DNA from: Candidatus Jordarchaeales archaeon
GTDB lineage: Archaea > Asgardarchaeota > Jordiarchaeia > Jordiarchaeales > Freyrarchaeaceae
DNA length: 12,748 nucleotides
Assembly: GCA_038858525.1 (NCBI GenBank)
Contig: JAWCFL010000016.1
Coordinates: 30,297-43,044, forward strand
Direction of reading: 5' to 3'
The notes below the pieces were generated by a model. The model worked only from the letters and a program-made list of their open reading frames with translations, did no database searches and was not told the DNA's origin. Each line of letters opens with the position of its first letter. Position 1 is the stretch's first letter. Shown here piece after piece: positions 6,601 through 8,022 of this stretch. Position numbers and translations under genes: made by a program.

Positions 6601-7440
6601 TTGCTACTGATATCTACCGCTAAGCATACTCTGGAGGAACTGCTTAAAGTGAGGGGATACGTAGATGGATACGAGCTCGGAATAGGCAGCGTGGAGCATA
6701 ACAGGATGCTCTGCAGCGTCCTAGGCGGCTCCATTCTAACCATCCATAACCTTCCAGCTCTTATGCCGGGGGAGGAAGCATTCATGATGGAACCGGCAGC
6801 TGACCCTAAGCCCGCAGCCAAGATGGCTACTAAGATGATTAAACGTATGGAGAACATGCTCGGGTCTTGGAGCGTTTATGGGGTTCACGCAGGGTTGAGA
6901 GGGAAGATAAAGGGTCCAAGTGACTTCACAATTAAAGGAAATCTGCTCCCGTTCGAGAAGTGCCTAGAAAACATAAGGACGTTCTGTGAGTTAATGCGGA
7001 ACGTGGCTCGGCATGGCAGTCTTGCTGTCGAAAACATTTACGGGGCGGATGAGAGGTCGCCAGCAGTAGGAGCTGACGAGAATGAACTTTTGCTTCTGTC
7101 AAGGGTCGTGCCGCTCCTTCTAGACCTCGGTCACTTGGCGGTTAACTGCGCCTACAGGAGTGTCCCACTCGAAAGCTTAAACCTCAAAGGTTTACGTATC
7201 GCCGAGCTCCACGTAAGCTTCCTTCACCCAAAAATAAAGGACTTCACACCGGAAAGCTTGAGGGCGGCGCCAATGTTCTGGGACCATCACCCCTACACGG
7301 ACACCCCTGTGAACAGGCAGATCCTAAATATGGCATCACAGCTCATAAACGAAACACAGCTCATAGTGGCGGAGGTGAGCGGAACACCGGAAGAAACTAG
7401 ACAGACGCTGGAAAAGCTCTTCTTCGCTAGAAGCAGGTAG
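6601..7440 (+). CDS. TIM-barrel protein, xylose-isomerase-like / AP-endonuclease-2 superfamily
   Basis: Metal-ligand-type motifs in the expected order: GYELG, TIHN, GVHAG, LAVEN, LLLDLGHL, ELHVS, DHHP, VAEV. Confidence 0.75.
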   Translation: MLLISTAKHTLEELLKVRGYVDGYELGIGSVEHNRMLCSVLGGSILTIHNLPALMPGEEAFMMEPAADPKPAAKMATKMIKRMENMLGSWSVYGVHAGLRGKIKGPSDFTIKGNLLPFEKCLENIRTFCELMRNVARHGSLAVENIYGADERSPAVGADENELLLLSRVVPLLLDLGHLAVNCAYRSVPLESLNLKGLRIAELHVSFLHPKIKDFTPESLRAAPMFWDHHPYTDTPVNRQILNMASQLINETQLIVAEVSGTPEETRQTLEKLFFARSR

Positions 7441-7444
7441 CCCA

Positions 7445-7458
7445 ACAAAAAATATATC
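7445..7458 (+). promoter_or_regulatory. BRE-TATA promoter of the H/ACA RNA
   Basis: A-rich BRE followed by ATATAT at 7452-7457. The predicted TSS at ~7482-7485 coincides with the 5' end of the hairpin. Confidence 0.6.
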
Positions 7459-7483
7459 TTAACTTTCGGGGCAAGATCATTAA

Positions 7484-7559
7484 TGGCCCGCCACAGAGTG
7501 CACGGGGAGCAAAATGGCCAAGCGATGATCCATAGTGTCCTCCATGGCGGGCCACACTT
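7484..7559 (+). ncRNA. Box H/ACA pseudouridylation guide sRNA (single hairpin, K-turn)
   Basis: 9-bp P1 stem (7485-7493 / 7545-7553), bipartite pocket CAGAGU / CCUCCA, P2 GCAC/GUGU, K-turn GGGGAGC / GCGAUGAUCC, and ACA at 7554-7556, 15 nt from the top of the pocket. Confidence 0.82.
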
Positions 7560-7680
7560 AAGCCAAACAAGCTTCACAGTGATCCTTTCTGCTTCTTGAT
7601 TGGTTGTAGCGATAGCAAAGTAAATAAGGAAGAAAAACATAGTTAAGTCTCAAAATGGTTGAAGGGAGGAGAGCGTTCCC

Positions 7681-8022
7681 TTGAAAGCCGGAATAGTATT
7701 AGCTGGATTAATCGCCGTGATCGTAGCTGCAGTCTTGTTCTTTATGGCATACTCCCAGCAGCACCTTATATACAACGTGACAACAATGGTTGACCTTGGA
7801 ATACTACCTTCAACGATCACTCTCCCAACAATTTACGGGACAAACACCACGATGGATACTGTCATATGGGCGATAAAGGCGCAATATGGTGGCTTCTTCC
7901 TTAACAGCGTGCTTCCAACAGGCAACACGATCTACGTCTACTACTCAGACGTCATAGTAGCGGCGAGCCTCGTGCTGGGAATATTTGGTCTATACGCGAT
8001 AGCTAAAGGCGCTCAAACATAA
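7681..8022 (+). CDS. Small hypothetical membrane protein (2 TM helices flanking a Thr-rich loop)
   Basis: SD GGAGGAGAG 7 nt before the TTG. N- and C-terminal hydrophobic helices; N-x-T sequons (NVT, NTT) in the loop. Confidence 0.75.
   Translation: MKAGIVLAGLIAVIVAAVLFFMAYSQQHLIYNVTTMVDLGILPSTITLPTIYGTNTTMDTVIWAIKAQYGGFFLNSVLPTGNTIYVYYSDVIVAASLVLGIFGLYAIAKGAQT

Follow-up and report, generated by a model that had tools for sequence, protein, structure and literature searches.

A 72-nt single hairpin at positions 7485-7556 (+) of the window (the whole 12,748-nt stretch of Jordarchaeum DNA that was analyzed) contains, by reading of its letters, a complete archaeal box H/ACA motif. Very probably it is a genuine small guide RNA, as yet uncatalogued, that adds a member to a well-known RNA class. 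We put a probability of about 85% on this hairpin being a single-hairpin box H/ACA guide sRNA of Jordarchaeum with a predicted target in helix 69 of 23S rRNA, at the uridine equivalent to E. coli U1911. Transcription of the hairpin, its assembly into a ribonucleoprotein and the resulting pseudouridine are each inferred.

Architecture and genomic context

All of the H/ACA hallmarks listed in a preliminary description of this DNA were found: a 9-bp lower stem (P1), a pocket, a short upper stem (P2), a K-turn, an ACA box and an upstream TATA-like box (Table 1). The K-turn, again as read from the letters, fits the consensus. The ACA box lies 15 nt after U7538 at the top of the pocket, the spacing originally claimed, and 14 nt after C7539, the first guide base. 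C7539 may be unpaired; otherwise it is the true partner of G7500, and U7538 bulges out. The predicted fold has an energy of -37 kcal/mol (z = -3.86), and none of 200 shuffled sequences folded equally well. Readings of the element as a C/D-box or SECIS RNA were dropped; it has no box D, and its covariation is with helix 69. An Rfam search, suggested in the preliminary description, found nothing in the window at the gathering threshold (models for HgcE, HgcF, HgcG and others) and nothing near the element up to E = 10.

Table 1. Parts of the candidate guide RNA and of its putative promoter, in window coordinates.
Feature	Positions	Strand	Sequence and remarks
A-rich stretch upstream of TATA-like box	7444-7449	+	read from sequence
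TATA-like box	7450-7457	+	AAATATAT; read from sequence
Lower stem P1, 5' strand	7485-7493	+	GGCCCGCCA; pairs with 7545-7553 (9 bp)
5' guide strand of pocket	7494-7499	+	CAGAGT (CAGAGU); pairs with helix 69 ACUCUG (predicted)
Upper stem P2, 5' strand	7500-7503	+	GCAC; G7500 is the pocket-closing base
K-turn, non-bulged strand	7504-7510	+	GGG (NC stem), GA (sheared pairs), GC (C stem)
Apical loop (11 nt)	7511-7521	+	AAAATGGCCAA
K-turn, bulged strand	7522-7531	+	GC (C stem), GAT (3-nt loop), GA (sheared pairs), TCC (NC stem)
3-nt bulge between NC stem and P2	7532-7534	+	ATA
Upper stem P2, 3' strand	7535-7538	+	GTGT (GUGU); pairs with 7500-7503
3' side of pocket, all 6 nt	7539-7544	+	CCTCCA (CCUCCA)
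Extra C	7539	+	alignment column present in family f1 only
3' guide strand	7540-7544	+	CTCCA; CUCC (7540-7543) pairs with helix 69 GGAG (predicted)
Lower stem P1, 3' strand	7545-7553	+	TGGCGGGCC, as RNA UGGCGGGCC
ACA box	7554-7556	+	directly 3' of P1

The upstream gene ends at 7440, and a small downstream gene without a Pfam match occupies 7681-8022. A minus-strand open frame (7293-7640, 115 aa), also without a Pfam match, overlaps the element, and there is no T-run after the stem. The center of the TATA-like box lies ~27 nt ahead of the expected RNA start near 7480, where an archaeal TATA box would be expected, and similar A/T-rich boxes occur at the same place in three Jordarchaeum relatives. 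The hairpin is probably transcribed from this predicted TATA box of its own.

The host metagenome-assembled genome (MAG; 2.09 Mb, 63 contigs, 92.7% complete) represents DNA that occurs in hot-spring metagenomes. A look-up of RNA datasets listed none that contain the element. Three raw-read hot-spring metatranscriptomes (3-5% of each sampled) and one sediment RNA run gave two reads only on the upstream gene and contigs of relatives on the downstream gene. Metatranscriptome reads of the same study gave no usable coverage of the element's locus at that sampling. A sediment metatranscriptome contig from a close relative runs over the downstream gene (window 7690-7952) and contains a joint that jumps back 263 bases. 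Misassembly, a repeat or a circular form could account for this joint.

Conservation and covariation of the hairpin

In four relatives (three of the same genus, one of the same family) 63-67 of the 72 positions of the element are identical, compared with 11-46 of 44-69 aligned positions in the flanks, and conservation drops sharply at the ends of the hairpin. Covariance models, built from five family f1 sequences and then iterated, identified orthologs in 15 Asgard genomes from at least six families, with hosts among the Jordarchaeia, the Freyr-like lineage, the Baldrarchaeia and two further families. The five-sequence model recovered a copy from the sister family (G006, 30.9 bits) in which the lower stem is rewritten as UACCCAUU/AAUGGGUA, and iterated models recovered copies from the more distant Candidatus Baldrarchaeum yapensis (G016), from its sister genus g17 (G036, G045 and G053) and from two more families (G111 and G018). 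The ortholog count leaves out weak model hits with other pockets (G014, f16, G110, G121, G145 and Njord-type). A contig scan also gave about 20 bacterial matches, none of which scored with the covariance model; these were rejected as chance. For family f7, in which helix 69 reads GGGAC-U-A-ACUAUG, a strict pattern for the matching guide gave matches at about the rate of a reversed-pattern control.

Alignments were based on the models; MAFFT misaligned the distant orthologs, and one alignment that contained antisense hits was discarded. The covarying orthologs that the preliminary description proposed to look for were obtained, and the guide architecture described there is supported by compensatory changes across the 15 genomes: 13 of the 17 pairs in the 15-sequence alignment (A7) change on both sides. 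Paired cells make up 90% of A7 and 35-47% when pairing partners are slid by 1-3 columns, counts that are favored by the fitting of A7 to the model's structure. Within P1, both partners vary at seven of the eight model pairs. RNAalifold, making its own prediction, recovered both P1 and P2, together with a ninth P1 pair (A7493-U7545) that is kept as A-U, G-C or C-G.

Loss of the K-turn or the ACA box in relatives had been named beforehand as evidence against the RNA; both are retained. The ACA box is found in 15/15 orthologs, the 5' GA of the K-turn in 14/15 (AA in G004), and GATGA or AATGA on the bulged strand in 15/15. The pocket-closing G.U pair is kept in 14 of the 15, and NC-stem pairs vary on both sides. 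Orthologs differ in the letters and the size of the ATA bulge (0-4 nt), which is what unpaired bases would be expected to show. Within the apical loop, TGGCCAAGC is invariant across the five family f1 genomes, while loop length and sequence are variable in other classes. Conservation within the RNA is highest at the guide bases.

Several related structures were seen during these searches. In the Freyr-like genus (L047:1480-1600 (-), also L055, L056 and L057) the hairpin and ACA box lie inside a perfect 9-bp outer helix, GAGGGUAUA/UAUACCCUC, that competes with the first two lower-stem pairs; this helix, which Jordarchaeum lacks, may serve in processing of the precursor. Related 86-nt hairpins (L062 from G029, L063 from G056, Njordarchaeota B13_G17, and L081) have nearly the same K-turn and lower stem (GGCCCGGC/GCCGGGCC), a different pocket (AAAGAGA / UAGUCC) and, in two of the three, AUA in place of ACA; the MAGs that carry them are without 23S. 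A 58-nt hairpin in two Freyr-like genomes (L048:802-859 (-), L049:814-871 (-)) combines an 8-bp lower stem, an AACUGU / ACUCCAU pocket and an ACA box with no recognizable K-turn; this could be a chance match or an unusual H/ACA-like RNA.

Predicted pairing with helix 69

A search of the host MAG found no assembled 23S gene, and the target sequence was taken from three relatives, two of the same genus (G002, G003) and one of the same family (G004). Helix 69 reads CGGGAG-U-A-ACUCUG-AC in all three. Six Watson-Crick pairs join the 5' guide, CAGAGU, to ACUCUG in these 23S sequences; with the 3' guide the total is 4+6 Watson-Crick pairs, and U-A is left unpaired. The target uridine is the equivalent of E. 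coli U1911 because it pairs with an A across the base of the 7-nt loop. The helix 69 sequence given in the preliminary description (GGGGG-U-A-ACUCUG) is right for U-A-ACUCUG and wrong in its 5' flank, which in the relatives is CGGGAG. The target predicted there (UGGAGG-U-N-ACUCUG) holds on the ACUCUG side, and its 3'-guide register is off by one. That register, CCUCCA with GGAGG, puts an A x C mismatch at helix 69, leaves helix 69 unranked and lets another site lead; when C7539 is left out of the guide, helix 69 rises from unranked to a clear first. The 3' guide makes four Watson-Crick pairs in Jordarchaeum; that of G004, CUCCC, makes five and that of Baldrarchaeum, CUCCCG, makes six. The A-to-C change in the G004 3' guide adds a pair in the corrected register only.

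When the guide of each of four lineages was ranked against sites in its own rRNA, the helix 69 uridine was the top rRNA site every time (score vs. next best: G002, 26 vs. 17; G004, 29 vs. 14; G006, 17 vs. 14; G016, 31 vs. 18). Shuffled guides reached the observed score in 6/1000 cases for G002, 1/1000 for G016 and 147/1000 for G006. The G016 guide forms 6+6 Watson-Crick pairs with its own helix 69; the Freyr-like orthologs pair weakly with theirs (3+5 bp). Genome-wide, the host MAG (which is without an assembled 23S) has no perfect 12-bp Watson-Crick target, only chance-level matches of 11-12 pairs that include G.U pairs.

Helix 69 differs among lineages at one loop base (position 1916), and the third guide base, which faces it, follows in every case. 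ACUCUG (G002, G003, G004) occurs with guide CAGAGU in the Jordarchaeaceae. ACUAUG occurs with CAUAGU in Baldrarchaeum, G018 and G111, and in the Freyr-like genus (23S from G006 and G008) with AAUAGU, or GAUAGU in G009. In genus g17, ACUGUG is matched by CACAGU; for this comparison the 23S comes from a congener (G026) and the guides from other genomes (G036, G045, G053). Three Watson-Crick-matched states of guide and target sequence are hard to explain unless the pairing is under selection. They are the decisive evidence and, together with the ranking in four lineages, sustain the proposed U1911-equivalent target.

In several Asgard 23S genes (L099/G026, L111/G111, L109/G110, L116/G008 and L031/G011) the conserved sequence stops right after helix 69, following CUCUC or CUCUUAA, and returns hundreds of bases later. 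Such breaks suggest introns in the rRNA where helices 69 and 70 meet. In Jordarchaeum the 23S genes run uninterrupted past helix 69.

Geometry and proposed mode of action

In published archaeal systems the ANA box lies 14-15 nt from the target U and the 3'-guide duplex carries more weight (Muller et al., PMC2377435), and productive folds have a 10-layer GA stem, a 3' guide of 5-6 nt and a 9-bp lower stem (Toffano-Nioche et al., PMC4652768). The element agrees with these rules in its lower stem (9 bp) and ACA spacing (14 or 15 nt). Exactly 10 GA-stem layers are seen in the Baldrarchaeum and G111 orthologs (7 bp, two G.A pairs and a U.U pair). The Jordarchaeum GA stem consists of 9 layers and a 3-nt bulge, and 10 layers would need one stacked base; by analogy with the productive folds (PMC4652768), one base of ATA may stack and supply the tenth layer. 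The P. abyssi H2 helices never have more than one bulged base (PMC2377435), and the 3-nt bulge in the Jordarchaeum upper stem, larger than any of these, counts against the guide reading. The GA stem with its bulge is the least secure feature of the element. The 3'-guide duplex of Jordarchaeum, of just 4 bp, also counts against that reading: the 3'-guide duplex matters most, and one of 4 bp with two G.U pairs failed (PMC2377435).

By analogy with solved archaeal H/ACA RNPs, L7Ae would bind the K-turn and Cbf5 the lower stem and ACA box, with Nop10 and Gar1 completing the particle. The pocket strands would pair with helix 69 (CUCC with GGAG, CAGAGU with ACUCUG), and the loop-closing U and the following A would stay unpaired in the active site of Cbf5, where the U would be converted to pseudouridine.

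The host encodes Cbf5 (461 bits), Nop10, Gar1 and two L7Ae-family genes, with all four proteins above curated cut-offs. Its cbf5 gene (G000:C1 about 177180-177210; L094 about 1695-1725) is interrupted by an in-frame 30-nt insert with a TGA stop, located in the catalytic motif (GHAGTL-E...N-PKVTG) and including a CCCCUUCA/UGAAGGGG hairpin. Removal of the 30 nt restores GTLDPKVTG, rebuilding the catalytic Asp codon from GA + T. The insert looks like a tRNA-type mini-intron, and it recalls the cbf5 intron of Crenarchaeota.

The host also contains a three-hairpin, HgcG/Pab40-like candidate (G000:C36:15786-16122; L113:1501-1837) that scores 28.6 bits, below the gathering score of 77. In its third pocket the two strands, UUUGAGAG + UGUUAGUUAC (GUUAC / GAGAG), bracket the 1915/1917-equivalent uridines. 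There is a similar match in Baldrarchaeum (L114).

Alternative explanations

The hairpin could be a genuine H/ACA guide that acts mainly or additionally on a different substrate, be it a tRNA, a small RNA or a further site in rRNA, in which case helix 69 would not be its main target. Archaeal H/ACA pockets can serve several targets (PMC2377435), and sR435 has eight (PMC11077068); the Jordarchaeum 3'-guide duplex with helix 69 is short, the target ranking covered rRNA, and in the register of the preliminary description a second 23S site, at G002 position 978, scores 5+3 pairs. However, no other rRNA site comes close to helix 69 in the four lineages, the genome is without a perfect 12-bp Watson-Crick target, and pairing with helix 69 alone accounts for the three states of the 5' guide and for the 3'-guide changes in G004 and Baldrarchaeum. 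We consider such a substrate unlikely. Still less probable is a conserved K-turn RNA that has the H/ACA shape without modifying its partner, acting as a helix 69-pairing chaperone of rRNA folding or processing or as an L7Ae-binding regulatory element. Some eukaryotic H/ACA RNAs, such as snR30, do work in processing rather than modification (PMC2664660), and expression and pseudouridylation are predictions for our element. In the predicted pairing, however, just U and A stay free at the pocket top, with ACA at the canonical distance of 14-15 nt. Catalysis needs this geometry and a chaperone does not require it, and the strongest conservation of this RNA falls on its guide bases.

That the locus holds no RNA gene at all, and the hairpin is a chance GC-rich fold, a piece of the minus-strand coding frame or the upstream gene's terminator, seems to us highly improbable. 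The 115-aa frame does overlap the element, and metatranscriptomes sampled at 3-5% provide no read coverage of it. Against this, the frame is without a Pfam match, the stem is not followed by a T-run, conservation ends at the boundaries of the hairpin, and compensatory changes keep the helices intact in distant classes with unrelated flanks. Chance hairpin, terminator and coding region are all contradicted by the covariation.

Relation to known guides and significance

The helix 69 guide proposed here is most like the single-hairpin sRNAs of Thermococcales (Pab91, Pab160 = Pf9, Pab21 = Pf1; PMC2377435, PMC4652768). Like them it has one hairpin, a lower stem of ~9 bp, a pocket of 5-8 + 5-6 nt, an upper-stem K-turn or K-loop with GA bases in the same orientation, an ACA box 14-15 nt from the pocket and an rRNA target with U-N unpaired. 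It differs in its target site, its Asgard host and the 3-nt upper-stem bulge of Jordarchaeum, and has no detectable sequence relation to them (no Rfam match even at E = 10).

H/ACA guidance of helix 69 pseudouridines is already known in archaea and eukaryotes. Archaeal examples are motif 3 of Pab40/Pf7/Afu4 (23S position 2016; PMC2377435), H. volcanii sR-h45 (1940/1942) and S. islandicus sR148 (2060/2066) (PMC5029457, PMC11077068), which share with our candidate Cbf5-dependent, RNA-guided pseudouridylation in the helix 69 hairpin of 23S. These guides make the equivalents of E. coli 1915/1917, plus that of yeast 2266 in Sulfolobus, whereas the Jordarchaeum RNA points four bases upstream, to the loop-closing U. 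The 1911-equivalent pseudouridine is absent from the P. abyssi, H. volcanii and S. islandicus maps, where helix 69 is modified at or after the 1915/1917 equivalents only (PMC2377435, PMC5029457, PMC11077068).

In bacteria RluD makes pseudouridines 1911, 1915 and 1917 in helix 69 (PMC2794176). It acts on the same 1911 site as a stand-alone protein enzyme, without a guide RNA. In eukaryotes the helix 69 pseudouridines are H/ACA-guided (yeast snR191, snR3 and snR84; human guides), in a nearly identical helix 69, GGGAGUAACUAUGACUCUC. Human 28S rRNA is modified at the 1911 equivalent. Yeast has pseudouridines at 2258, 2260, 2264 and 2266 and not at the 1911 equivalent (bioRxiv 10.1101/2024.02.02.578723). 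The eukaryotic snoRNAs have two hairpins and no K-turn, unlike the Jordarchaeum RNA.

A literature search that combined Asgard with H/ACA or Cbf5 turned up no relevant paper. The target site is modestly new and the comparative support unusually good. A bolder claim would be that this is the first dedicated archaeal guide for the helix 69 1911-equivalent pseudouridine, conserved across several Asgard classes, that together with the three-hairpin RNA it would give Asgard ribosomes the full 1911/1915/1917 triad known otherwise from bacteria, through RluD, and from human 28S and, in the strongest form, that it is an ancestor-like relative of the eukaryotic snoRNA for this site; we hold this to be doubtful. 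Understanding of how H/ACA RNPs work is unchanged by the finding. The three-state covariation is a clean computational example of target assignment in uncultured organisms, and the covariance models could serve as the starting point of an Rfam family and help to annotate Asgard MAGs better. The finding gives the Asgard archaea, which among prokaryotes are closest to the eukaryotes, a further family of H/ACA sRNAs that is uncatalogued and has phylogenetic support, and it predicts a modification at intersubunit bridge B2a.
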